In this document: one piece after another, positions 35,621 through 48,710 of the stretch
How the letters are laid out: each line of letters starts with the position of its first letter
Numbering within the stretch: the stretch's first letter is position 1
Source: Candidatus Poribacteria bacterium
GTDB taxonomy: Bacteria; Poribacteria; WGA-4E; WGA-3G
Direction: 5' to 3'
Length of the DNA: 64,000 nucleotides
Assembly: GCA_965198235.1 (NCBI GenBank)
Contig: OZ240248.1
Location: 4,576,001-4,640,000 of the forward strand
Notes under the pieces: model-generated
Databases searched by the model: none
What the model was told of the DNA's origin: nothing
The model's input: only the letters and a program-made list of their open reading frames with translations
Made by a program: the position numbers and the translations under genes

Positions 35621-36802
35621 TCAATGTCCGTATGCTTTCATCACCTTTTGCAGCTCCGCCAACGGAATCGCGTACATCGTTCTGCCGTTGCGCCCAGTGG
35701 TTGTAGTTGCCATTGTCATGGAATTGACGATAGCCTCCTCTGTGGCTTCAATAACTGCTTGAAAGAGTGAATTTAGCCGTCCGTTTACGAGCATCTGGAT
35801 TTGGAATGTGCCGGTTTCGGTCCGACTTGGAAAAATGTTCGCGGTGGAAAACGCGATGACGAATTCACCGCTACCGTCAGTACTCGGTGTTCCCGTGCGA
35901 GCGAGCCCATGCGTAGCACGAATCGCTAACTGTTTCAATTGGCGATGTGTCAACGGGGCATCCGTCGCGATAACAATAATGAACGAACCATCTCTACGGG
36001 GTTTCGGTGGGGATCCGATAATTTCCTTACCGACAGGGACACCATCAATTCGCAGTTGCGAACGACGACCCCCGTTGGAATTAACAAGGACACCCACTGT
36101 CCATCCACCACGTTCTTCAGGTAGGACGCGGGAGGCGGTGCCGATACCGGCTTTGAAACCGTAGCATCGCATGCCAGTGCCGCCGCCAACGCATCCTTCG
36201 GTTACGGGACCACCGGTGGCGTTCTCAATCGCTTCAATCGCATGCTGTGCTGTGACATGTAGTCCGCTGATGTCGTTCAAACCACCATCGTAGCACTCCG
36301 CTACAATTGGTAGCACGATGTTGTTGTCTGGATACCGTTTCACAATGTAACGCACAACGCCGTCATGGACTGCCCCAACACTGAGCGTATTTGTGAGCAA
36401 AATGGGAGATTCAATCCACCCGGCTTGATTGATACGGGCGATGCCGGTTGCTTCACCATTGCCGTGAATGATATGTGCCGCGCCAAATAGGCGTGCTGTC
36501 CAAATATCATCACTTGGAAGGATAGCAGTAACACCGGTACGAATTGAATCGCCTTCGTTCAGGGTAACGTGTCCGACTTTCACACCCTCTACATCAGTGA
36601 TGGCATTGTGTGTGCCGGTTGGAATGGTACCGATCTGGATACCGATGTCGCGTCCCCGCGCACGATGGTTTAGATCTGCGCCTTCAGCATCGGTGCTACA
36701 TAGAGGATACGTCCAAAGAGCACCAGTGAGAACGACGAAGAACAGCGTTTTTGCGTAGTGCAAGGATCTGAGACCTTGCATCTTTTTAAGAAGTTTCTGC
36801 AT
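35621..36802 (-). CDS. DmpA/P1 (S58) family aminopeptidase, probably exported
   Basis: NAITDVEGVKVGH, TGVTAI, EGCVGGGTGM, DGS cleavage site and EATEEAI. Confidence 0.9.
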   Translation of the reverse strand: MQKLLKKMQGLRSLHYAKTLFFVVLTGALWTYPLCSTDAEGADLNHRARGRDIGIQIGTIPTGTHNAITDVEGVKVGHVTLNEGDSIRTGVTAILPSDDIWTARLFGAAHIIHGNGEATGIARINQAGWIESPILLTNTLSVGAVHDGVVRYIVKRYPDNNIVLPIVAECYDGGLNDISGLHVTAQHAIEAIENATGGPVTEGCVGGGTGMRCYGFKAGIGTASRVLPEERGGWTVGVLVNSNGGRRSQLRIDGVPVGKEIIGSPPKPRRDGSFIIVIATDAPLTHRQLKQLAIRATHGLARTGTPSTDGSGEFVIAFSTANIFPSRTETGTFQIQMLVNGRLNSLFQAVIEATEEAIVNSMTMATTTTGRNGRTMYAIPLAELQKVMKAYGH

Positions 36803-37334
36803 TTTCTAATTGATTCCTATAGATTCTGCGAATGTGGTTAAAAATAGCGATATATGTTGGTAATCGGTAATCGGGATAACTCCACTCCCAGGGTTGGAAC
36901 GTTTTGCGATAGAAGCGGAGTGTGATTTCGGCATAAATACCGTCGCTGAGGTAGATACGATGGGCATGGTCTTTCGTTGACGCAAGCACCAATTTTGCCA
37001 AGCAGATGTAACCTGCGTCTAAATTGACACGCCGCGCGTCTCCTTCGGACTTTTTTATAGCAAAAGCTTGCTCCACGTTATTTGTGAACAACTTCATTTC
37101 TGCCAGTGCACCGGCATCGATAAGTCTTTCAAAACTGATAAATTGTCGTTGGATGTCTGGTCCCATTTCAGCCTCGTAGTAGGCTGTGCTCGTGAAAGGC
37201 ATCAATTCACTTGTGTAATCAATGGGTCCAAGGCGATGTGTCAGTTCAGTATAAACGGTTGGCAGGAGGGTGGGTTCCGCTATTAGCACGCCGATGATTG
37301 CTTTAACCGATAGCGGTGTTGTGATGGCTCCCAT
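36786..37334 (-). CDS. DUF4416 family protein
   Basis: FTSTAYYEAEMG, RRVNLDAGY, LASTKDHAHRIYL and WSYPDY; GGAGG RBS before ATG 37334. Confidence 0.8.
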   Translation of the reverse strand: MGAITTPLSVKAIIGVLIAEPTLLPTVYTELTHRLGPIDYTSELMPFTSTAYYEAEMGPDIQRQFISFERLIDAGALAEMKLFTNNVEQAFAIKKSEGDARRVNLDAGYICLAKLVLASTKDHAHRIYLSDGIYAEITLRFYRKTFQPWEWSYPDYRLPTYIAIFNHIRRIYRNQLENAETS

Positions 37335-37550
37335 GTTATCCTCCGTAGTCCAAAATCCATCGTACAACCTTAAAATCCACGTCCTGATCCTCGATAGTGT
37401 GAACTTCAAGTTCATCAAGTATAGCGAATTGCGTTTAACACATCAACGCTTCATTTATTACTATAAAATTCTATAAAAATTGCGGTTTTGGGGATCAGTC
37501 TCCTACATTATTGCATTAAATTGAAAAAAAGTGGTTTTTTTATTTTTTTC

Positions 37551-37579
37551 TTGACATTTTACGAAATATAATGTATAAT
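37551..37579 (+). promoter_or_regulatory. Consensus sigma70 promoter of rpoBC
   Basis: TTGACA-17 nt-TATAAT. Confidence 0.85.
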
Positions 37580-37694: not shown

Positions 37695-40600
37695 GTGAAC
37701 AAAAAGCCCATCCAGAAAAATGTGAGGATGTCTTTTGCCAAAACGCAGGTTCGGACCCCACTCCCGAACCTCATAGAGACCCAAAAACTTGCATATGATG
37801 CCTTCTTACAACAAGATATCCCACCTAATGAACGTCCGGATACTGGCCTCCAAGCGGTGTTTAAGGAAGTATTTCCGATTCGCGATTTTTCGGAGGTTAA
37901 CAGTCTTGAATTTGTCAATTACAGCCTTGGCACACCGAAATATACTCTCCAAGAATGTGTTGCGCGCGGTGTAACATATCAAGTATCCCTTACTGCCCGT
38001 ATTATGCTTGTCCTGCGTGAAGCAGACTCGGATGCAGATGAACCTCACGTTGTGGATATCCGAGAGTCCGATGTATATCTCGGCGAAGTTCCTTTAATGA
38101 CTGAAAATGGCAGCTTCATTGTCAATGGTAGTGAACGTGTGATCGTGAGCCAGCTGCACCGTTCGCCGGGTGTTATTTTTCTTGAAAAGGCATTGCCGAC
38201 GGGACGGCGTACACCGACTGCCCAAATTATTCCCTATCGAGGGGCTTGGGTCGAATTTGAAATAGACACCAAAGATCAGATTTATGTGCGCATTGACAAG
38301 CGTAGAAAACTGCCGGCTACTGTGCTTCTTCGTGCACTCGGTTGGGAGTCGGACGCAGATATCCTGAAGCTTTACGCCAAGACGGAACGACTTGTACTTG
38401 CCGGGTGGCAGGTTACGCATGTAGAAGGACCAGCAAAGAAAATCACATCTGGTGATTTGTTGGATGCTGCGGACTTTCGACAAGCCAGCAGAGACTATCC
38501 TGACCTTGAGGTAGAGAAGAGTTATCGTGTTATAGAAGTAACTGATAAGGACTGCCCACTGGAGATTGGACAAGCACTCACATATAAGAATCGGACGAGC
38601 CTTCGCAGAAAATGGAAGGGCTTTGAAACTGAGCTTCTTCGGCGTGTTGTTGACACCCACAATAGTGGGTGTGAGCTCATTCCCGAACAAGTGCTAACAA
38701 ATTCGGAATACGAAGAGGGGCGTGCCCGCTACGGAAGCAAAGCATTCGCAGCTGAACAGATTTTGTCCCAAGACAGCCAGGAAAGTGTCGGTAGGGTCTG
38801 CGCTGAAGACGTTATCAACCCAGAAACTGGCGAAGTGCTCCTCACAGCGAATACGCTGCTCACCGAAACGGAATTGGAACGTCTCAGTGAGACTGGTGTT
38901 GAGGCACTTACAGTACTGGATGAGGAAGATTGCCAGCACATCCGATTTTTGCGTAATACATTGGAGCGCGACCGACAGGCGGACTATGAGGAACCCTATA
39001 CTTTACAAGATGCCGCACTGCTTGAGATTTTCCGCACGCTGAGACCCGGAGATCCTGCTGGTATAGAGAACGCTCGTAAACACCTTTCATGGTTGCTCTT
39101 TGACCCGCACCGATACGATTTAGGTGTAGTTGGACGGTACAAACTGAATCGAAAATTCCAGAATATTCCCGTTTATGGTGAGCCACCTGAAGAGACTTTG
39201 CGCACGCTCCGTCCCGAAGATATTGCCGCTACGGTAGATTATCTTCTTAAAGTCCACAACGGGATTGCTCCGAAAGACGATCTTGATCATCTCGGTAATC
39301 GCCGCGTACGTGTTATCGGTGAGTTACTCGAAAACCAGTTCCGAATGGGTTTATTCCAGATTCGCAGAACTACGCGCGAACGCTTGAGTACCAACAATGA
39401 TATTGCGAAGGTCGTCCCGTCTTCGCTCATAAATCCGAAACCGCTGATGATGGCACTCCGGGAATTTTTTGGATCGAACCAGCTGTCGCAGTTTATGCAA
39501 CAGATTAATCCGTTGGATGAATTGACGCATAAGCGTCGTATCTCAGCAATTGGTCCAGGTGGGCTTCACCGAGATAGAGCAACGGCAGCCGTTCGGGATG
39601 TACATCGAACGCACTATGGACGTGTCTGCCCCTTGGAGACACCTGAGGGACCATCCATCGGTCTTATCGTTTCTTTGGCGTGTTATGGACGGATAAACCC
39701 TTATGGTTTTATAGAGACCCCTTATCATAAGGTTGAGGACGGTTCGGTGTTGGATCCAGTGGAATATCTGACAGCAGATAGTGAGGATACTGCTTACATT
39801 GCTGCAAAGGCGATCTCGAACGATGCCGAACAAGCTGGAAATGGTGAGGCATCGGGGTTACAAACCCCTCCTACAGAGCAGATGCTGCCTGTACGCAGTG
39901 GGGAGGATGTGCTGTCGCTTCCGATGGAAAAAGTGGACTATATCGGTGTTTCTCCACAGCAGATAGTCGGCATTTCTGCTGCGTTGGTTCCGTTTCTGGA
40001 ACATGAGGACGCAAACCGGGCATTGATGGGTGCTAATCACCAACGTCAGGCTGTGCCGCTTGTCCGTCCAGAAGCACCGCTCGTCGGAACGGGGATGGAA
40101 GCCCCGGCGGCACTGTATTCAGGTGCACTCATCACCGCTAAGCGAGCTGGTACCGTCACAAGTGTTTCCGCCGATGAGATCCTCATATATACTGGCGAAA
40201 CACTTCATCATGACAAGGGTGAGAATACGTTCAGCGAAATGGGCTACGATGTTTACAAACTCCAAACATTCAAACGGAGTAATAGCGGCACCTGTATTCA
40301 CCAGCACCCCATCGTTGCAGTGGGCGATAAAGTTGAAGCCGGACAGGTTATTGTGGATGGCACCTCTACAGAGAGCGGTGAACTCGCTCTTGGGCGGAAT
40401 GTGCTGTGCGCTTATATGCCGTGGGGCGGTCACAATTACGAGGACTCTATCCTGATAAGTGAGACACTCATCAAGGAAGATATCTTCACCTCTATCCACA
40501 TTGAAGAATTTGAAGTGGAGGCACGTGAGACGAAAGTGGGCCCGGAGGAAATCACCCGTGATATTCCGAACGTTAGCGAGCAGCGGCTTACACAACTTGA

Positions 40601-42938
40601 TGAAGAGGGTATTATTCACGTTGGGAGCGTTGTGGGTGCAGGAAGCATCCTCGTCGGAAAAATTACACCGAAAGGTGAAAGTGAATATGGTCCGGAAGAG
40701 AAGCTCCTACGCGCAATCTTTGGTGAAAAAGTCAAAGAAGTAAGGGATGCTTCGACTTATGTACGCCCCGGAGTTGAGGGTGTCGTTATTGATGTAAAAG
40801 TATTCTCCCGTAAGCCGGATGCTGCCTCCCGTCGTGGAGGTTGGGCACAAGGCGACTCAGGGTTATCGATGGCTGACAATTTGCGATATGAATCGAAACG
40901 CAAAGAGATTGAAGAGACTTCGCGTGAGCAGATCGCTTCTATCCGTCGCCGAAAAATCGAAGAGATTCGCAAAACACTCATAGGATGTGAACTTGCTGAT
41001 TCGCTTTACACGGTTAATGGAACTAAAGGTGATACTGACGCTAAACTCTTCGCTAATGCTGGTGATACCCTGACAGCTGAGGTTTTGGACGCTTATATTT
41101 CCGGTTTCACTGCAGATGAGTACCACTTGGTAACCGAAGATACAAACTCTGAAGTTTTTACCGCTGAAGCGTGTTATAGGGTAACAGACGTACCTGAATC
41201 AATTCCTACTATTGTGGTCTATCCTTCGGATTCCTCAGCAGTGCAAGGATACCTTAGCGAAGTGTGCAAACCGATTTTGGGAAGTACTGAGCCATTCTTG
41301 CAGGAAACGGAATCTGTAGATGGGGACTTAGAAGATGCTGATGTTGTGCTTCAGGGTTACGATAACAGTGTGATTGCTATTGCTGTGTGTGAAGACGCTC
41401 ACACTGACGATGAGGATGCTGAAAACGGGTATCATTCCGAGCGTCTGATGGAGATGCTTGCTGCAACAGGAGCACGATTTGGTGTATTGGTACCTGACGG
41501 TGAGCCAGAACCCGATAACTGGGATTTCTATGAACTCGTAGATTTGACCAGCGACTCGCCTCCGACACAAGACTCAGAAGCACGAGTCGCTGATCAAACT
41601 GTGTTGCAACTGTGTGAGCGTTCTGAGTTTGAGACTGGAATTACCACACAACTTGAAGCAACTGGATGCCCTGTCGTTGAGACACAGAGGCTCAACGAGG
41701 AAGAATGGACGAACTTCAGTCAGACTTATCCGGGTTTACAAGCCGAGTTATTTTGGCAAATTAAGGAAGTTTTCGACCCCGCGTGCCCCTTGACCGAAGG
41801 ACAAGAACTCTCCGATACCGACTATCTGCGAATGTCCAGAGATTTTCCTGCACGTCCTATAGCAGCGGGTCAACGACTGGCTGCGGATGAACTGGCATCA
41901 TTTACCCGGACCATCAAGGATTTGAAAATCGACAGCGTCTGGCACATTACCGTTGTTTTTGACCCAGAGTGTACACTGTCTGCTGGAGAATATGTTTCTG
42001 ATGCCGACTATCAAGAGGCACGTAAATCATGTAGCTTGACTTTCTCAGACATCCATGTTACCAATGCCAATGCCAGAGAGCATATTCAGCGTGTTGAAGA
42101 GATGGCGCAAGGCAGGATAACCACTTACACTGAGGAGAAAGAACGAGCACTTCAGCAGTTAGAGATGGGTGATGAGCTAAAACCAGGAGTCATCAAACGC
42201 GTCAAAGTCTATGTCGCAAGCAAGCGTCCGATTTCCGTCGGCGATAAGATGGCGGGCCGCTACGGCAACAAAGGTGTTGTTGCCAAAATTTTGCCTGCTG
42301 AGGATATGCCCTATCTGCCGGATGGTACCCCGGTTGAGTTGGTACTGAACCCGTTAGGTGTGCCCTCTCGAATGAACGTCGGTCAAATCTTGGAAATTCA
42401 TCTCGGATGGGCGTGCCATGAACTCGGTATCCAAGTGGAATCCCCTGTATTTGATGGTGCAACAGAGGGAGAAATCTTTGAAATGCTTGGTAAGACCGAG
42501 CTCCCAGAACGCAGTAAACAGACCGGTAAGAGCATTCTCTTTGATGGTAGAACCGGTGAGGCATTTGCCCAGGAAGTAACGGTGGGTTACGTCTATTTCC
42601 TCAAGCTGAACCACCTTGTTGCTGATAAGATGCATGCTCGCTCAACGGGACCTTATTCTCTTGTTACACAGCAACCGTTGGGAGGCAAGGCACAACACGG
42701 GGGCCAACGGCTCGGTGAGATGGAGGTCTGGGCATTGGAGGCTTATGGTGCAGCCCATACGCTCCAAGAAATGCTCACGCTCAAATCAGATGACGTTCTT
42801 GGTAGAAGAGAGATTTACGAGTCGGTTGTGAAAGGGTTAAATCCTGAACCGCCCGGTACACCGGAATCATTTAAAGTCTTGGTCCGCGAACTCCAAACCC
42901 TTGGACTTCATGTATCCCTCGATAAGGATGAAGAATAG
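37695..42938 (+). CDS. rpoB: RNA polymerase beta subunit (1747 aa, with large insertions)
   Basis: SQLHRSPG, HYGRVCPLETPEG, GDKMAGRYGNKG and GGQRLGEMEVWALE motifs. Confidence 0.99.
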   Translation: MNKKPIQKNVRMSFAKTQVRTPLPNLIETQKLAYDAFLQQDIPPNERPDTGLQAVFKEVFPIRDFSEVNSLEFVNYSLGTPKYTLQECVARGVTYQVSLTARIMLVLREADSDADEPHVVDIRESDVYLGEVPLMTENGSFIVNGSERVIVSQLHRSPGVIFLEKALPTGRRTPTAQIIPYRGAWVEFEIDTKDQIYVRIDKRRKLPATVLLRALGWESDADILKLYAKTERLVLAGWQVTHVEGPAKKITSGDLLDAADFRQASRDYPDLEVEKSYRVIEVTDKDCPLEIGQALTYKNRTSLRRKWKGFETELLRRVVDTHNSGCELIPEQVLTNSEYEEGRARYGSKAFAAEQILSQDSQESVGRVCAEDVINPETGEVLLTANTLLTETELERLSETGVEALTVLDEEDCQHIRFLRNTLERDRQADYEEPYTLQDAALLEIFRTLRPGDPAGIENARKHLSWLLFDPHRYDLGVVGRYKLNRKFQNIPVYGEPPEETLRTLRPEDIAATVDYLLKVHNGIAPKDDLDHLGNRRVRVIGELLENQFRMGLFQIRRTTRERLSTNNDIAKVVPSSLINPKPLMMALREFFGSNQLSQFMQQINPLDELTHKRRISAIGPGGLHRDRATAAVRDVHRTHYGRVCPLETPEGPSIGLIVSLACYGRINPYGFIETPYHKVEDGSVLDPVEYLTADSEDTAYIAAKAISNDAEQAGNGEASGLQTPPTEQMLPVRSGEDVLSLPMEKVDYIGVSPQQIVGISAALVPFLEHEDANRALMGANHQRQAVPLVRPEAPLVGTGMEAPAALYSGALITAKRAGTVTSVSADEILIYTGETLHHDKGENTFSEMGYDVYKLQTFKRSNSGTCIHQHPIVAVGDKVEAGQVIVDGTSTESGELALGRNVLCAYMPWGGHNYEDSILISETLIKEDIFTSIHIEEFEVEARETKVGPEEITRDIPNVSEQRLTQLDEEGIIHVGSVVGAGSILVGKITPKGESEYGPEEKLLRAIFGEKVKEVRDASTYVRPGVEGVVIDVKVFSRKPDAASRRGGWAQGDSGLSMADNLRYESKRKEIEETSREQIASIRRRKIEEIRKTLIGCELADSLYTVNGTKGDTDAKLFANAGDTLTAEVLDAYISGFTADEYHLVTEDTNSEVFTAEACYRVTDVPESIPTIVVYPSDSSAVQGYLSEVCKPILGSTEPFLQETESVDGDLEDADVVLQGYDNSVIAIAVCEDAHTDDEDAENGYHSERLMEMLAATGARFGVLVPDGEPEPDNWDFYELVDLTSDSPPTQDSEARVADQTVLQLCERSEFETGITTQLEATGCPVVETQRLNEEEWTNFSQTYPGLQAELFWQIKEVFDPACPLTEGQELSDTDYLRMSRDFPARPIAAGQRLAADELASFTRTIKDLKIDSVWHITVVFDPECTLSAGEYVSDADYQEARKSCSLTFSDIHVTNANAREHIQRVEEMAQGRITTYTEEKERALQQLEMGDELKPGVIKRVKVYVASKRPISVGDKMAGRYGNKGVVAKILPAEDMPYLPDGTPVELVLNPLGVPSRMNVGQILEIHLGWACHELGIQVESPVFDGATEGEIFEMLGKTELPERSKQTGKSILFDGRTGEAFAQEVTVGYVYFLKLNHLVADKMHARSTGPYSLVTQQPLGGKAQHGGQRLGEMEVWALEAYGAAHTLQEMLTLKSDDVLGRREIYESVVKGLNPEPPGTPESFKVLVRELQTLGLHVSLDKDEE

Positions 42939-42971: not shown

Positions 42972-45900
42972 ATGAACACGGCATTTGACAGCATCTCCAT
43001 AAAGATAGCCTCGCCCGATCAGATTAAAGACGAGTCGAAGCAGACCAGTTGCAAACGTCGGAAGCCCGCCCAAGAAGCGGATGCACCTTTTATCTGCCCC
43101 GAGAAAGGGACATGTAGTTGTGGCGAGGTCAAGAAGGCGGAGACTATTAACTACCGCTCCTTTCGTCCTGAAGCGGAGGGCCTCTTCTGTGAGGCTATCT
43201 TTGGACCACAAAAGGACTGGGAGTGTAACTGTGGTAAGTATAAACGGATTAAACATAAAGGGATGATATGTGACCGCTGTGGTGTTGAAATCACACAACA
43301 GCGTGTTCGCAGAGATCGACTCGGATATATTCAGCTTGCCGCACCTGTCTCTCATATATGGTACTTCAAAGGAATTCCTTCTCGCATCGGCACCTTCTGT
43401 GAACTCTCCTCACGTGATGTTGAGCGTGTGCTCTATTTTGAGGGGTTTATCGTCGTTGAAGTGACTGACCCAGATTGTCCTCTTGAACGTGGGCAGGTGT
43501 TAACCGAGATTGAGTACATAGAACACAGCAACAAGTACGGGGATGGATTTCGGGCTGGCACCGGTGCAGAAGTCATTCGCGAATTACTCAGCGATATTGA
43601 TCTTGAGGCGGAGATAGAGAAGTTAACCACAGAGTTGGAGGAAACAACGAGCCATCAGAAAAAGCTGAAGATCGCCAAACAACTGAAACAGATAGCTGAC
43701 TTTGCAGAAGTTGGTCAGCGGCCCGAGTGGATGATTTTGGATGTTATTCCTGTCATCCCACCAGATTTACGACCTCTTGTTCCGCTTGAAGGTGGACGTT
43801 TTGCTACCAGCGACCTGAACGACCTGTATCGCCGTGTTATCAATCGGAACAACCGACTGCGTAAATTGATACAGCTCCGTTCCCCCGAAGTCATTCTCCG
43901 TAACGAGAAACGGATGTTACAGGAGGCAGTCGACGCATTCTTCGACAATGGACGGCACGGTAGGCGTGTCACCGGTCCGGGTAACCGTCCGCTCAAATCC
44001 CTTGCTGATGTTCTCAAAGGTAAGATTGGGAGGTTCCGTCAGAATCTGCTCGGTAAGCGGGTTGACTACTCTGGACGGAGTGTCATCGTTGTTGGACCTG
44101 AATTGGGGTTGCATCAGTGTGGGATCCCCAAACGGATGGCTGTAGAGTTGTTTAAGCCGTTCATTATTGAGCGACTTCAAGCGTATGGGTATACGCAGAC
44201 AATTAAGCGTGCGAAGCATATTGCTGAACACGTTGATTCCGATTCTCCTGTATGGGAAGTCGTAGAGGAAGTGATTGCGGATCATCCAGTTTTACTCAAT
44301 CGCCCGCCAACTTTGCACCGGCTCGGCATTCAGGCATTTTTGCCTGTCTTGGTAGAGGGCAAGTCGATCCGGATTCCGCCACTCGTCTGTAAAGCGTTTA
44401 ACGCTGATTTTGACGGTGACCAGATGGCAGTCCATGTACCACTCACCGTGGAAGCCCAAGCTGAAGCGAAACTCCTAATGCTCAGCAGTCATAACATTCT
44501 CAAGCCCTCACATGGCGATCCTATCGCTGTTCCGGAGCTTGACATGGTACTCGGACCCAGTTTCCTGACAAAGGTGTTGCCAGAGCACGCTGCGGATGCG
44601 ACACTTCTGCATGATGCTTATACAACAAGCGATCCTTCTGCTTTTGATGCCCTCCGTGAAAAGCCATGGTTCCATCGTCGCTACGCACACCCAGAAGAGG
44701 TGCTTACCGCTCATGCAGCGGGTCAACTTAAACTGCACGACAGCATCCAGCTTTTCCGTGCATCTAATGGGGATGATGGGAAAACCACGGAACCAATTCT
44801 AACGACAGTCGGCAGGGTAATATTTAACCAAGTACTGCCGTCTGGTTTAGAGTGGGAGGATGCAAATTCTCAGCAGCGTATTTCGTTCTTCAATGCTGAA
44901 GCTGGAGGCAGAGAACTGTCTAACCTGATCCACCGTTGTTTCAACGAATTGGGCACACGTGCCACGACTGAAGTGCTTGAGAAAGTACAGAAGCTTGCTT
45001 TCGAGTATGCAACGCTGAGTGGTGTTTCGCCCGGTATCATGGATTACATTACTCCTGAGAATCGCGATGCTTTGGTGAGCAAAGCACAGGCAGAAATTGA
45101 CACCCTCCTTGGCAATGTCACGGCGACCGAGCGCGAAGAACATGAAAACGAGCAGATTCGTATCTGGTTGGATGCGATTACAGCCGTTGAGAACACAATG
45201 TTCTCGATTTTGCCCCAGTTAGAGACCTCTCTCGTTGAGCGCGGTGACCCTCGAAAGATTCATCCGTATGTTGATCCCGATGGGTTAGAGGTACGCGACA
45301 GAACAGTAGAAGGCTTCAGTCCGGTACATATCATGGCAGATAGTGGCGCACGAGCACGGAAGAATCCATTTATGCAAATCAGTGCTGTTATCGGGTTGAA
45401 AGCCAAGCAGAGCGGTGAAATTCTCATTCCGCCGATTACCACCTCTTATCGTGATGGTCTGGACGTACTTGACTACTTCAACTCTACTTATGGATCCCGT
45501 AAGGGTCTCGTGGATACGGCGATGAAAACCGCCGCGTCCGGTTACCTCACTCGAAAGCTTGTGGATGTGGCTCAAGATGTTCGTGTCACTACTGAAGACT
45601 GCAGCACGCTTAATAGCATCCAAAAGTTCGCGACAGAGGGGGGCGACCTTGCTTTTAAGATTAGCGGACGCACTGCTGCCGAGGATATCCTCAATCCAGA
45701 GAGCGGGGGCCTGCTTGTTCCATCGGGTACTGTCATATCGGCGCAGATGGCGGACCAGATTGACGCACTTGGCATAAGAGTGGCGAAAGTGCGCTCTGTG
45801 CTCACGTGCCAAACCGATGATGGAGTCTGCGCAAAATGCTACGGTAACGATTTGACGACGAATGATCTTGTCAATGTTGGCGAAGCTGTGGGCATCATTG

Positions 45901-48671
45901 CTGCACAGTCTATCGGTGAACCGGGTACGCAACTTACTATGCGGACGTTCCACACCGGGGGTGCTGTTGAAGATGTTTCAGAAGCGCGTCAGCGCAGAAT
46001 TTTGTCTAAAGTCAGTGGCACCGTGTATTTCCGAGATTTCCAACCCAGTCGGACGGTCAAAGAAGAGGGCGAGCTCTGGGTCGCAACCGAAAACAGAACG
46101 AATCTTGATGAACCTGCCTACAAGGTTATACGAGTTAACAATCCTCACTGTCCATTGCGAGAGCATGAATTACTCAGTGAGAAGCAGTACATGGAAAACG
46201 CGGAGCGCTATAAAGGTTTTGATACAAAGACGTGGCAGTATCAAGTCACAGCTGTCTTGGATAGCGACTGCGACTTGAATGTGGGGGGGCGACTGTCTCA
46301 GGCAGAATACGTCAAGGCACAGATGGAATATAGCTTCCAGCGATTTGTGACCCCAAAATACCGAGTGGCGCGGGTGCAACATCCTAAGCTTCCATTGACT
46401 GTTGGCACCGAGCTCACTGAAGAAGAGATAGAGCAATTGAGAACTGATATCCGGCAAGGGATTAACGGAGAATGGCATTACTTAGATGCAGAAACAGGCG
46501 AGCGTATTGCTATTGAAAGCCTTACAGCAGTTTCAGGTAATGCTTCTTCTGAGCGTCCGAACGGTTCCTCTGATAATCCCGATACTGCGAATGCGTCTGG
46601 GCGAGATGCGAGTTTTAATCGTGTGTATTGTATAACCGAAATAGATAAGCAGACAAGCAAAGACTTCGGATTTAAGGTAGGAGACGAAGTTGCACCAGAA
46701 GAAATTGCTCCGTTGCTTAATCCATTTGAGATGGAGATAAAGCCCGTTTACGTTGTACATACAGAGGTTGCTGAATTTACAGTTAGTCAGACATTAACGT
46801 CCCGTGAGTACGAGGACGCTCGCACAGAGTATCAGCAACTTGAACGCGCATTTAAAGTTGAAAAACAGGATGATGAACGACACTATGTGACAGCTGTGTA
46901 TCATCCCGAATGTCCTTTTGAAGTGGGTGAAGAATTGAGCGAGGCAGCCTTAACCCGTGCACGCAAGCGATTTCCAGGTTTTGATGCACCGCCCCTACGA
47001 CACCGTGTAACGCAGGTGCATCATCTGGACTGCAGTCTCAAACCGAGAGATCTACTTACTGAGAGTGAGAAAAAACAATTCGATGAGAGTTACCCTGGAT
47101 TCGTCACTTCTCAAAGTAAGAGCACCGCGGGTGGCTTTGCAGGAGAACGGTTATACCGTGTTACATCGGTCAATCATCCTGACTGCCCATTAGAAGTTGA
47201 TGGTCTCTTGACGCAAAAGGAATCATCTGCAAACCGCCGACACTACAAGGGTTTTGAAGTTGCACGTCATTATGAAGTGACACACATTGAAGATGAAACG
47301 ACAGCGTTAAGTGTCGGTCAGCGTCTCACCGAGATCGAGTATAAAGCACTCCGCAAGACGGATGCTTCGTTACCTGAGAAAGTCAAAGGACTCTATCATG
47401 TCATTAGCGTCCATCACCCTGAATTGAACCTGGAGGTTGGTGCTGAATTGAGTGAAGACGAGTATAAGACGTCCCATCGCCAGTTCAAAGGATTTGATGT
47501 TGAGCTGGTTTACCAGGTAACTGTGGATACGCGGGATGTTGATGAACTACTTGAGGTTGGGACTATTCTACCCTCGAAGGAATACCGGGCTCTTGAGAAA
47601 GCAAACTTGCGGGTGACCCATACCGTCACCGAGGTTCATCATCCGAATTGCAAGTACGCTGTCGGCGACGAATTGTCCGAGGAAGTATACAATGAGGCAG
47701 CGAGACGGTATCCCGGATTCGAGATCGATGAATTGTCATTGCGGATGCGTATTGAGGTAGAAACATCGGATGGGAGTCGGGTGCCGCATGTCATTCCTAC
47801 GGGTTACTCCTTCTCTTTGACAGAGGGTGATAGCATTCAGAAGGGAGAAACGCTGGCAGAGCTCTATGAGAGGACAGCGAACCGTGACATTGTTGCTGGT
47901 ATTCCGCGTGTCACTGAATTGTTTGAAGCGCGCCGCCCGAAACGCGGTGAAGCCGCAGAAATCGCTGAGATTGAAGGTTACGTCCAATCTGCAGGCACGA
48001 AGTCAGGTATTCCTACCTACCGCATTGAGCACGAGGGATATCAGAGTCGTCTCTATCAAATACCTGATGAGAAGCGACGCGTCGCTGAAGGCGATTGGGT
48101 GAATGCCGGTGAACCCCTCACCGATGGTTATCTCAATCCGCACGATATTTTGAGTATCGGACGTACGACTATTGAAGGTGTATCGGTTGAGGGTGAAGAG
48201 GCGGTCTGGTCATATCTCGTCGATGAAGTCCAGAAAGTCTACGGCAAGGGGACTATCAACGATAAACACGTTGAGGCAATCGTCCGACAGATGTTGACTA
48301 AGATTCGTATCACCGAGCCGGGCGACACAAACTTCTACCCGAACGATGAAGTGCAACGCAAGCAATTTGAACGCGTTAACAGTGAGATTGAGGAAAAAGG
48401 TGGAACGCCTGCCTCGGGTGAACCGATTCTCCAGAGCATAAGTAAAGCCTCCTTGAGTACAGATAGCTTCATCTCAGCTGCATCCTTCCAGCAGACGACG
48501 AAGGTGCTAACGGATGCTGCTGTCGGTGGGCAAACCGATAGACTCTTTGGGTTGAAGGAAAACGTTATTCTCGGTAGACTCATACCAGCGGGAAGTGGAT
48601 TCTCCAGTTTCCAGGACTTAGAGATATCCTCCATTGAACCAGAAATAGGCGAAGCTGGTGATGACGATTAA
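42972..48671 (+). CDS. rpoC: RNA polymerase beta-prime subunit (1899 aa, with a large trigger-loop insertion)
   Basis: CNCGKYK...CDRCG, GKRVDYSGRS, NADFDGD, GEPGTQLTMRTFH and GLKENVILG motifs. Confidence 0.99.
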   Translation: MNTAFDSISIKIASPDQIKDESKQTSCKRRKPAQEADAPFICPEKGTCSCGEVKKAETINYRSFRPEAEGLFCEAIFGPQKDWECNCGKYKRIKHKGMICDRCGVEITQQRVRRDRLGYIQLAAPVSHIWYFKGIPSRIGTFCELSSRDVERVLYFEGFIVVEVTDPDCPLERGQVLTEIEYIEHSNKYGDGFRAGTGAEVIRELLSDIDLEAEIEKLTTELEETTSHQKKLKIAKQLKQIADFAEVGQRPEWMILDVIPVIPPDLRPLVPLEGGRFATSDLNDLYRRVINRNNRLRKLIQLRSPEVILRNEKRMLQEAVDAFFDNGRHGRRVTGPGNRPLKSLADVLKGKIGRFRQNLLGKRVDYSGRSVIVVGPELGLHQCGIPKRMAVELFKPFIIERLQAYGYTQTIKRAKHIAEHVDSDSPVWEVVEEVIADHPVLLNRPPTLHRLGIQAFLPVLVEGKSIRIPPLVCKAFNADFDGDQMAVHVPLTVEAQAEAKLLMLSSHNILKPSHGDPIAVPELDMVLGPSFLTKVLPEHAADATLLHDAYTTSDPSAFDALREKPWFHRRYAHPEEVLTAHAAGQLKLHDSIQLFRASNGDDGKTTEPILTTVGRVIFNQVLPSGLEWEDANSQQRISFFNAEAGGRELSNLIHRCFNELGTRATTEVLEKVQKLAFEYATLSGVSPGIMDYITPENRDALVSKAQAEIDTLLGNVTATEREEHENEQIRIWLDAITAVENTMFSILPQLETSLVERGDPRKIHPYVDPDGLEVRDRTVEGFSPVHIMADSGARARKNPFMQISAVIGLKAKQSGEILIPPITTSYRDGLDVLDYFNSTYGSRKGLVDTAMKTAASGYLTRKLVDVAQDVRVTTEDCSTLNSIQKFATEGGDLAFKISGRTAAEDILNPESGGLLVPSGTVISAQMADQIDALGIRVAKVRSVLTCQTDDGVCAKCYGNDLTTNDLVNVGEAVGIIAAQSIGEPGTQLTMRTFHTGGAVEDVSEARQRRILSKVSGTVYFRDFQPSRTVKEEGELWVATENRTNLDEPAYKVIRVNNPHCPLREHELLSEKQYMENAERYKGFDTKTWQYQVTAVLDSDCDLNVGGRLSQAEYVKAQMEYSFQRFVTPKYRVARVQHPKLPLTVGTELTEEEIEQLRTDIRQGINGEWHYLDAETGERIAIESLTAVSGNASSERPNGSSDNPDTANASGRDASFNRVYCITEIDKQTSKDFGFKVGDEVAPEEIAPLLNPFEMEIKPVYVVHTEVAEFTVSQTLTSREYEDARTEYQQLERAFKVEKQDDERHYVTAVYHPECPFEVGEELSEAALTRARKRFPGFDAPPLRHRVTQVHHLDCSLKPRDLLTESEKKQFDESYPGFVTSQSKSTAGGFAGERLYRVTSVNHPDCPLEVDGLLTQKESSANRRHYKGFEVARHYEVTHIEDETTALSVGQRLTEIEYKALRKTDASLPEKVKGLYHVISVHHPELNLEVGAELSEDEYKTSHRQFKGFDVELVYQVTVDTRDVDELLEVGTILPSKEYRALEKANLRVTHTVTEVHHPNCKYAVGDELSEEVYNEAARRYPGFEIDELSLRMRIEVETSDGSRVPHVIPTGYSFSLTEGDSIQKGETLAELYERTANRDIVAGIPRVTELFEARRPKRGEAAEIAEIEGYVQSAGTKSGIPTYRIEHEGYQSRLYQIPDEKRRVAEGDWVNAGEPLTDGYLNPHDILSIGRTTIEGVSVEGEEAVWSYLVDEVQKVYGKGTINDKHVEAIVRQMLTKIRITEPGDTNFYPNDEVQRKQFERVNSEIEEKGGTPASGEPILQSISKASLSTDSFISAASFQQTTKVLTDAAVGGQTDRLFGLKENVILGRLIPAGSGFSSFQDLEISSIEPEIGEAGDDD

Positions 48672-48676
48672 ATAAT

Positions 48677-48710
48677 ATAGGGCGGGTATCCTTACCTGCC
48701 CTATTTTTTT
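48677..48710 (+). terminator. Intrinsic terminator after rpoC
   Basis: ATAGGGCGGGTA-TCCT-TACCTGCCCTAT followed by a T tract. Confidence 0.85.

Follow-up and report, generated by a model that had tools for sequence, protein, structure and literature searches.

In a 64,000-nucleotide (nt) stretch of DNA from a Candidatus Poribacteria bacterium (contig OZ240248.1 of assembly GCA_965198235.1, forward-strand positions 4,576,001 to 4,640,000; referred to below as the window), we analyzed an insertion of 641 amino acids (aa) in the trigger loop of RpoC, the RNA polymerase (RNAP) beta' subunit. In every cellular RNAP, this loop is the catalytic part that moves, and its appendages set speed, pausing and proofreading. 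We found that about 540 of the 641 aa consist of 13 units of ca. 40 aa and a disordered linker, all nested within a single, split sandwich-barrel hybrid motif (SBHM). On balance, we think it probable that the insertion is a giant, family-specific form of the known trigger-loop insertion SI3 (also termed beta'In6), in which a self-derived array of modules of the "small left claw" (sLC) type acts as a regulatory arm.

The insertion and its repeat units

The insertion is bounded by the landmarks TFHTGG (RpoC aa 992 to 997, nt 45945 to 45962) and DIVAGIPRV (aa 1639 to 1647, nt 47886 to 47912). An earlier interpretation made from the letters of the DNA (the sequence-only reading) had placed about 640 aa between them; the distance is 641 aa, nt 45963 to 47885. 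This is the SI3 site, between the two arms of the beta' trigger loop. The Pfam match to Rpb1 domain 5 (PF04998) is stretched over aa 829 to 1786, across the insertion, and the domain is therefore broken by a long insert. When the 641 aa were scanned by themselves, no Pfam family was found at E <= 0.01, the sole subthreshold match being to the cytochrome f C-terminal domain.

The sequence-only reading had counted about 12 units, some of them degenerate, and a test of their likeness to one another had been named beforehand. A hidden Markov model (HMM) built from nine units picked by eye and run on RpoC and RpoB recovered these units, and it did not do so with shuffled sequences (best independent E value [i-E] among 40 shuffled RpoB/RpoC controls, 0.96). 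The repeats are thus real, and they number 13, of which nine are significant by sequence (u1 to u3, u7 to u11 and u13) and four are degenerate (u4, u5, u6 and u12). No tandem repeat was detected in the array at the DNA level, and the copies are therefore old.

In an AlphaFold2 model of aa 975 to 1665 (691 aa, 59 homologues; mean predicted local distance difference test score [pLDDT], 77.3; predicted template modeling score [pTM], 0.48), the N-half strands of the SBHM are followed by four strand-strand-helix units, a disordered stretch, nine further units and the C-half strands of the SBHM. The strand-strand-helix fold thus recurs 13 times in succession, with a pLDDT of 80 to 92. The predicted arm has two lobes, and the insert is acidic (net charge, -35). 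Across 60 orthologues, column conservation was highest in u1 (0.90) and in the two SBHM halves (0.84 and 0.87) and lowest in the linker (0.41).

Within the (H/D)-P-x-C-P-L loop, five units (e.g., aa 1060, 1100, 1314, 1354 and 1405) have a Cys that does not vary across these 60 orthologues; in four units, a His located 2 to 3 residues ahead of it is likewise invariant. The Cys is also present in the native module of the outgroups. The idea that such H-P-x-C loops form a metal site was given up as unlikely, since one or both residues are missing from several units and the lone native module retains only the Cys.

Where else the unit occurs

The HMM built by eye also matched sequences on which it had not been trained, namely, the native N-terminal segment of beta' (aa 161 to 186, i-E 1.7e-7) and four stretches of RpoB (aa 276 to 313, 8.5e-10; aa 1359 to 1385, 1e-5; aa 1418 to 1445, 0.003; and aa 317 to 346, 0.009). 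A stricter profile, A5, was made from 57 trigger-loop units of six genomes, was kept free of native and RpoB rows and was run on a six-frame translation of the whole 5.17-Mb genome. It gave 15 matches at E <= 1e-3: nine in the trigger loop, one at the native beta' site (1.9e-7) and five in RpoB (2.9e-11 to 8.6e-4). The best A5 match outside rpoBC had an E value of 1.19, and all 13 matches of another profile, A1, lay inside rpoBC. The resemblance to a native N-terminal beta' segment, pointed out in the sequence-only reading, is therefore borne out genome-wide by a profile that had seen trigger-loop units only. The presence of the unit in RpoB had gone unmentioned there. One RpoB site is beta-i4; at the other, an insertion at aa 1183 to 1453 in which Pfam found nothing, the units follow a degenerate nuclease-like domain. 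This second insert sits just before the conserved KMAGRYGNKGV region; judged by eye, that is where the helical ladder of beta-i9 has its tip.

A search of the insert against 1.84 billion representative proteins returned 21 matches at E <= 1e-3. The five that were inspected comprised an RpoB with beta-i4 units, a C-terminal piece of RpoB with units, one non-RNAP protein and two short fragments that bear units; the remaining 16, judged by length and matched range only, appear to be RpoC or pieces of RpoC. In six relatives (P0035, P0053, P0034, P0051, P0108 and P0122), two to five further unit matches lie N terminal to the trigger loop. Of the six, only P0035 was inspected; its extra units are at the native beta'-bD2 site, so the source site itself expands in some lineages.

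Identity of the unit

Pfam holds no family for the ca. 40-aa unit. When a profile of 64 units with native rows included (A4) was compared with all PDB sequences, the six best matches all fell on beta' at aa ~141 to 178 (E 0.0038 to 0.13; chains from C. difficile, B. subtilis and four others). This is the beta'-bD2 segment, which together with beta'-bD7 constitutes the sLC (CATH 3.30.60.280; Alvarez-Carreno et al. 2024). By sequence, the unit resembles beta'-bD2 both in the window's own RpoC (E 1.9e-7) and in the native segments of outgroup genomes (1e-14 to 6e-5). A single modeled unit was placed by Foldseek on B. subtilis beta' over 40 columns with a root mean square deviation (rmsd) of 1.4 Å and a probability of 0.91, but with an E value of 1.8. 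These weak matches in solved structures suggest that the unit is a module of the sLC type.

Several other structural matches were set aside. Long Foldseek alignments of the 691-aa model are noise (rmsd, ~30 Å), and for a 173-aa four-unit piece only the single-unit match described above was usable, its matches to Thermus beta' being discarded as evidence (rmsd, 17 to 20 Å). OspA, the top PDB match of the first unit profile, proved to be a repeat artifact in which no stretch passes alone.

One alternative is that we are dealing with an ordinary, catalogued SI3 of SBHM or BBM2/BEAN repeats that has diverged past recognition. The strand, turn, strand and helix of the unit do resemble one "bracket" of the BEAN domain (CATH 3.90.105.10; Alvarez-Carreno et al. 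2024), and the RpoB units adjoin a canonical BBM2 at beta-i4, a site predicted to hold one to six BBM2 repeats (Opalka 2010). However, the sequence-only reading had itself named the folding of units as SBHMs or BBM2 domains as an outcome that would undo it, and neither outcome was found. Each unit has a helix, hence the units are not SBHMs, and none of them matches an SBHM profile. Nor do the unit profiles ever match beta-i4, beta-i5 or beta'-bD5 of solved beta and beta' chains; they match beta'-bD2 only. The canonical BBM2 of the same RpoB (aa 364 to 430) does match E. coli beta 292 to 356, 3lti_A and beta'-bD5 of other bacteria. It also contains the TGD/E motif, which is absent from the unit consensus and is characteristic of the BEAN domains of RNAP beta (Alvarez-Carreno et al. 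2024). Moreover, at the trigger-loop site, the text of the 2024 survey gives only SBHM-type (HABAS) domains (Alvarez-Carreno et al. 2024). We therefore regard a diverged but ordinary repeat as improbable, although the unit may have a remote kinship with the half-BEAN bracket. The same results bear on the earlier claim of a "different, self-derived unit." Self-derivation stood, whereas "different" had to be weakened, since this type of module is already catalogued as the small left claw (Alvarez-Carreno et al. 2024); what we have is a small RNAP module that was already known, used at a site and on a scale that are new.

Ancestry of the insertion

In five outgroup genomes of the same order, the trigger-loop inserts measure 193, 198, 203, 212 and 369 aa; four of the five (193 to 212 aa) are thus of ordinary SI3 size. 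In all five, the unit profile finds exactly one match, which falls on the native site of beta' (E 1.3e-14 to 5.8e-5), and in four of the five this native segment already has the D-P/S-x-C-P/E-L ... L-T/S-E-E-E-Y signature of the trigger-loop copies. We take the array to be self-derived on these grounds, namely, that the outgroups have a single native module whose signature is shared in four cases. The sequence comparison accordingly supports the view that beta'-bD2, in the N-terminal part of the same enzyme, was the source from which the unit was copied.

The proposal that the units are nested between two halves of an SBHM was also confirmed, both by the strands of the AlphaFold2 model and by alignment of each half to an outgroup insert. 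The halves align to positions 109 to 131 and 151 to 195 of a 198-aa outgroup insert, and none of 200 shuffles reached the score of either half for L001 and L002 (the results were weaker for L003, L005 and L004). It follows that, of the two SBHMs in an ordinary SI3, the base domain corresponds to the second. No counterpart of the first is present here, and the array occupies a ca. 19-aa loop of the surviving one. The insertion is thus descended from the SI3 of related bacteria, but it is not built of SBHM repeats; it has one split SBHM and 13 strand-strand-helix units.

The 369-aa outgroup insert (L004, from genome G053 of family f4) contains some 170 extra aa, rich in Lys and Glu, with a repeated ...KKYAKLFD... 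motif. By eye, this extra sequence lies in the very SBHM loop into which the array of the window is inserted, and the loop may therefore be an insertion hotspot.

Distribution and selection

The phylum was sampled with 151 genomes. Besides the window's own genome, 99 of them belong to its family (five genera), and 97 of these 99 have the array; it was found in none of the 51 from eight other families. All eight homologues that carry an organism name are labeled Candidatus Poribacteria (seven) or with the name of the sponge Geodia barretti (one). In this sample, the array is confined to one family of sponge-associated Poribacteria.

Within the family, the array aligns end to end with that of other genera at 41 to 49% identity. 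In three close pairs, the ratio of nonsynonymous to synonymous substitution rates (dN/dS) was 0.155 to 0.224 for the insert and 0.049 to 0.095 for the core. The insert is under purifying selection, 2 to 3 times more relaxed than that on the core.

Both landmarks were present in 117 RpoC sequences (the window's own included), drawn from 124 proteins of >1000 aa. Their inserts range from 625 to 1053 aa and contain 8 to 15 units at i-E <= 0.01; 106 are <= 700 aa, and 11 are longer. About six extra units occur in P0052, P0059, P0064 and P0089, where, by eye, a block corresponding to u8 to u13 has been duplicated.

That the array might be an assembly artifact, a pseudogene or an intein is hardly credible, and nothing was found in its favor. 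Among the matches listed, the frame is open and without stops; the gene is the sole rpoC of the 5.17-Mb genome (one PF04997 match genome-wide), and selection on the insert is purifying. As to an intein or homing endonuclease, the window's insert contains no nuclease, no splicing domain and no Pfam intein-type domain; nucleases are found in relatives only.

Nuclease domains in relatives

In five of the eight long RpoC relatives scanned with Pfam (P0028, P0046, P0067, P0089 and P0124), a REase_MTES_1575 domain is present in frame inside the array (E 1.8e-12 to 1.8e-24), in four of them inside u2 and in one ca. 200 aa further on. At the u2 site of P0120 and of a genome of genus g4 (L012:1220-3688) there is a different insert. 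A firm HNH label for P0120 was rejected (Pfam E 0.0033, 18 bits against a cutoff of 21.4 bits; the long L012 query gave no detection), and because the score is below the cutoff, we term these inserts HNH-like only. The u2 site is common to two nuclease families, and one family occurs at two sites. None of the nuclease-bearing arrays of the relatives has a Pfam intein domain.

P0142, a free-standing non-RNAP protein of 938 aa, contains two HSDR_N-like domains (the second degenerate), two to three RNAP units, a long coiled coil and C-terminal TPR repeats. Its HSDR_N_2 match is weak (E 0.0026, below the cutoff). In L013:3150-5948 (genome G080, genus g5), a 933-aa trigger-loop insert has additional units of a "W-type" (x-W-R-V/I...), separated by half-units; these W-type units are closer to the RpoB-type and P0142 units than the usual trigger-loop units are, at an identity of only ~0.4. 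An attempt to order events by nearest-neighbor units among RpoB, P0142 and the trigger-loop arrays was abandoned, as identities of 0.36 to 0.56 over 40 aa are too weak.

Taken together, these sequences suggest, without proving it, that the module was carried from site to site, and its copy number altered, by nuclease-plus-unit cassettes. A possible, if doubtful, alternative is that the array is for the most part a relic left by a selfish element (a cassette of nuclease and unit) that inserts in frame and does not splice. Having colonized tolerant surface loops of RpoB and RpoC, it would be kept because its removal would be costly and not for any service to transcription. Such an origin would fit the in-frame nucleases in the arrays of relatives (two sites, two families), the RpoB insert, in which a degenerate nuclease-like domain is paired with units in the same layout as in P0142 (E 3e-31), the spread in insert length (625 to 1053 aa) and unit count (8 to 15), and the relaxation of constraint relative to the core. 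It would also fit the different, Lys/Glu-rich sequence in the 369-aa insert of G053 (family f4), whose placement in the same loop was made by eye. Against it, a dN/dS of 0.16 to 0.22 denotes purifying selection, the order of the 13 units has been kept over five genera and down to 41% identity, the Cys and His of the unit loops are invariant in 60 orthologues, and u1 is conserved as much as the SBHM base. In addition, 106 of the 117 RpoC proteins have a plain array of <= 700 aa, which leaves no room for a nuclease there.

A related idea, which we put forward tentatively, joins such an element to a working arm. The ca. 40-aa module may be both the payload and the landing pad of an undescribed non-splicing mobile element, a nuclease-plus-unit cassette that would enter surface loops of RpoB and RpoC in frame and multiply by break-induced ectopic repair. 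Its products would then include P0142 and both RpoB inserts as well as the trigger-loop array, and the array would since have been co-opted as a regulatory arm tethered to the trigger loop.

Secondary-channel factors

The GreA_GreB_N domain was found in none of the phylum's 151 genomes, although 9 of 14 controls were matched, and a DksA-type zinc finger was found in none of the 57 genomes searched from families f1 to f5, the window's own included; the finger is present in all four genomes of families f6, f8 and f9. The GreA/GreB C-terminal domain was matched in 3 of 61 genomes (one just over the cutoff and two below it), each time in an open reading frame (ORF) of >1300 aa. These Poribacteria may lack any classical secondary-channel factor.

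This raises the question of whether the arm replaces the absent Gre and DksA, with the trigger-loop array gating the secondary channel, as the tail and fin of Si3 have been proposed to do in cyanobacteria. The null results for GreA_GreB_N and the DksA-type finger fit this idea, and Qayyum et al. 2024 connect cyanobacterial Si3 with the absence of these factors. However, families f2 to f4, which have an ordinary SI3 of ca. 200 aa, are equally without these factors, and their loss thus predates the array and does not track it. We consider gating as a substitute for these factors unlikely, and a specific link between the array and Gre/DksA loss was rejected on account of the outgroup families.

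The rpoBC locus

The window contains a two-gene rpoBC unit (rpoB, 1747 aa; rpoC, 1899 aa), and Pfam finds the complete set of Rpb1 and Rpb2 domains in the two products (Table 1). The neighbors are unrelated: genes for a peptidase S58 protein and a DUF4416 protein lie upstream on the opposite strand (nt 35621 to 37418), and a fumarase gene lies downstream. The genes that usually precede rpoB, rplKAJL, are absent from the region directly upstream of it.

Table 1. Positions, in the window, of the rpoBC genes, their candidate flanking signals and the parts of the two inserted subunits
Feature	Position (nt)	Strand	Basis or remark
Promoter-like site 5' of rpoB, TTGACA-17-TATAAT, 12/12	37551..37579	+	Consensus scan only
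rpoB, beta subunit, 1747 aa	37695..42938	+	ORF, Pfam; two sites bear the ~40-aa unit
Three unit copies at RpoB beta-i4 (lobe) site	38406..38732	+	A5 E 8.6e-4, 2.9e-11, 5.5e-4
Canonical TGE-type BBM2 of beta-i4, RpoB aa 364-430, distinct from unit	38784..38984	+	Aligns to E. coli beta 292-356 and 3lti_A
RpoB insertion aa 1183-1453: degenerate nuclease-like domain, then units	41241..42053	+	BLASTP E 3e-31 to P0142; units 41748-41849 (1.1e-8), 41937-42026 (1.9e-7)
rpoC, beta' subunit, 1899 aa	42972..48671	+	ORF, translation, Pfam Rpb1 domains 1-5, PDB beta' chains E=0
Native beta'-bD2 module (small left claw), aa 156-196, probable source of unit	43437..43559	+	A5 E 1.9e-7; by-eye HMM i-E 1.7e-7; same site as PDB beta' matches
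Trigger-loop insertion, 641 aa (aa 998-1638)	45963..47885	+	Landmarks TFHTGG and DIVAGIPRV
Base SBHM N-half, aa 1009-1046 (model strands aa 1009-1038)	45996..46109	+	AlphaFold2 model; outgroup SI3 alignment
u1, aa 1047-1087, most conserved unit (0.90)	46110..46232	+	Profile-significant
u2, aa 1087-1127, site of nuclease domains in relatives	46230..46352	+	Profile-significant
u3, aa 1127-1166	46350..46469	+	Profile-significant
u4, partial/degenerate, aa 1164-1186	46461..46529	+	Strand-strand-helix in model only; no significant profile match
Disordered Ser/Asn/Asp/Gly-rich linker, aa 1187-1214 (disordered in model, about aa 1185-1213)	46530..46613	+	pLDDT 26-34; column conservation 0.41
u5, degenerate, aa 1215-1253	46614..46730	+	Model; L014 orthologue scores 1.5e-4
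u6, degenerate, aa 1256-1299	46737..46868	+	Model; i-E 0.012; L011 orthologue scores 8.6e-8
u7, aa 1302-1340	46875..46991	+	Profile-significant
u8, aa 1342-1381	46995..47114	+	Profile-significant
u9, aa 1392-1431	47145..47264	+	Profile-significant
u10, aa 1431-1470	47262..47381	+	Profile-significant
u11, aa 1473-1511	47388..47504	+	Profile-significant
u12, degenerate, aa 1512-1547	47505..47612	+	Model; profile E 7.3, not significant
u13, aa 1548-1587	47613..47732	+	Profile-significant
Base SBHM C-half with GD-box-like strand, aa 1588-1638 (model strands aa 1583-1631)	47733..47885	+	Outgroup SI3 alignment z 10.3; weak cytochrome f C-terminal match E 0.072; model
Terminator-like hairpin and T-run directly 3' of rpoC	48677..48704	+	Consensus scan only

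Discussion

In our preferred reading, a giant SI3 that serves as a regulatory arm, the ancestor would have had an ordinary, two-SBHM SI3 of ca. 200 aa. The SBHM that remained would then have taken up, in one of its surface loops, the array, now 13 copies of a ca. 40-aa strand-strand-helix module from beta'-bD2, and the same module would also have entered two surface sites of RpoB. Growth of the array most likely occurred by in-frame duplication and ectopic copying, probably aided by the nuclease cassettes that are still found inside the array in relatives. The array as it stands is a conserved, acidic, two-lobed arm hung on both arms of the trigger loop through one SBHM, and an arm tethered in this way on the enzyme surface would have to travel whenever the loop folds onto the incoming nucleotide. 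By analogy with better-known insertions, docking on and undocking from nearby surfaces would set the ease of loop closure and, with it, elongation rate, pausing and intrinsic cleavage. The jaw, the helices that form the rim of the secondary channel and the beta lobe are candidates for such docking. In E. coli, the beta lobe is located near SI3. Here the lobe bears three copies of the module itself, which makes a module-to-module contact with the arm a testable guess.

Several points weigh against this reading. The mechanism is drawn by analogy from E. coli SI3 and cyanobacterial Si3. The packing of the array is poorly defined (pTM, 0.48), and a four-unit piece of 173 aa modeled in isolation reached a pLDDT of only 73. 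Neither that piece nor the 691-aa model gave any Foldseek match in the PDB at E <= 1e-3. When native rows were left out of the profile, the top three PDB matches were still beta' aa 141 to 178, but at E values of 0.08 to 0.11, which are not significant. The evolution of the insert is 2 to 3 times faster than that of the core, and mere tolerance may therefore account for part of it. The absence of Gre- and DksA-type factors is not tied to the array, because outgroup families with a normal SI3 are also without detectable factors. Finally, Pfam finds no nuclease in the window's own insert, and the link to nucleases comes from relatives only.

The sister families, with their normal insert of ca. 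200 aa, offer a natural comparison for the role of a large trigger-loop appendage. The in-frame nucleases of the relatives would be a case of an essential enzyme gaining surface domains via mobile elements without splicing.

In a full-text literature search, we found no paper that combines Poribacteria with the trigger loop and none that describes such an array; the Poribacteria rpoC literature includes PMC3444138, which treats a 3-aa indel in RpoB. Rare variants with extra sLC, BEAN or HABAS domains do exist (Alvarez-Carreno et al. 2024). The insertions described there, however, lie within beta'-bD2, bD4, bD5 and bD7 of Firmicutes and of the Deinococcus-Thermus-Synergistetes-Thermotogae group, and the main text of that survey (its supplementary Table S4 aside) reports none of them in the trigger loop or in RpoB and mentions no 13-copy array and no Poribacteria. 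The module is known, then, and its use in the trigger loop as a 13-copy array is new in the literature searched, the same Table S4 again aside. The kinship with the sLC shows in the sequence match to beta'-bD2; one unit also superposes on it, though at an E value (1.8) that is not significant. With BBM2/BEAN (beta-i4, beta-i5 and beta'-bD5), the units share a small size, restriction to RNAP, tandem arrangement and presence at several independent surface sites of beta and beta'; they differ in giving no profile match and lacking TGD/E, and a canonical BBM2 stands separately beside the RpoB units.

The closest relatives in position are the other trigger-loop insertions, so far described only as SBHM repeats; SI3 insertions are reported to have two to five of them (bioRxiv 2021.01.27.428476), and the cyanobacterial insertion has nine (Alvarez-Carreno et al. 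2024). E. coli SI3 (beta'In6 or beta'i6; 188 aa, two SBHMs) occupies the same site. The Poribacteria base domain is homologous to the second SBHM of the ca. 200-aa SI3-like insert of the sister families, and the arm is likewise expected, by analogy, to move with trigger-loop folding. Unlike E. coli SI3, the Poribacteria insert is 3.4 times larger, has one SBHM left and holds 13 non-SBHM units nested in it. Cyanobacterial Si3, at 645 aa, has been called the largest known (Qayyum et al. 2024). It is found at the same site and is of nearly the same size as the 641-aa insert described here, which reaches 1053 aa in relatives; it too has domains nested inside an SBHM, in a host that, like the Poribacteria, is without detectable Gre. 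In contrast to the cyanobacterial case, the brick in Poribacteria is a ca. 40-aa sLC-like module and beta' is unsplit. The Poribacteria insert would thus represent a second giant trigger-loop insertion, of independent origin in one family and built of another brick, copied from the enzyme itself.

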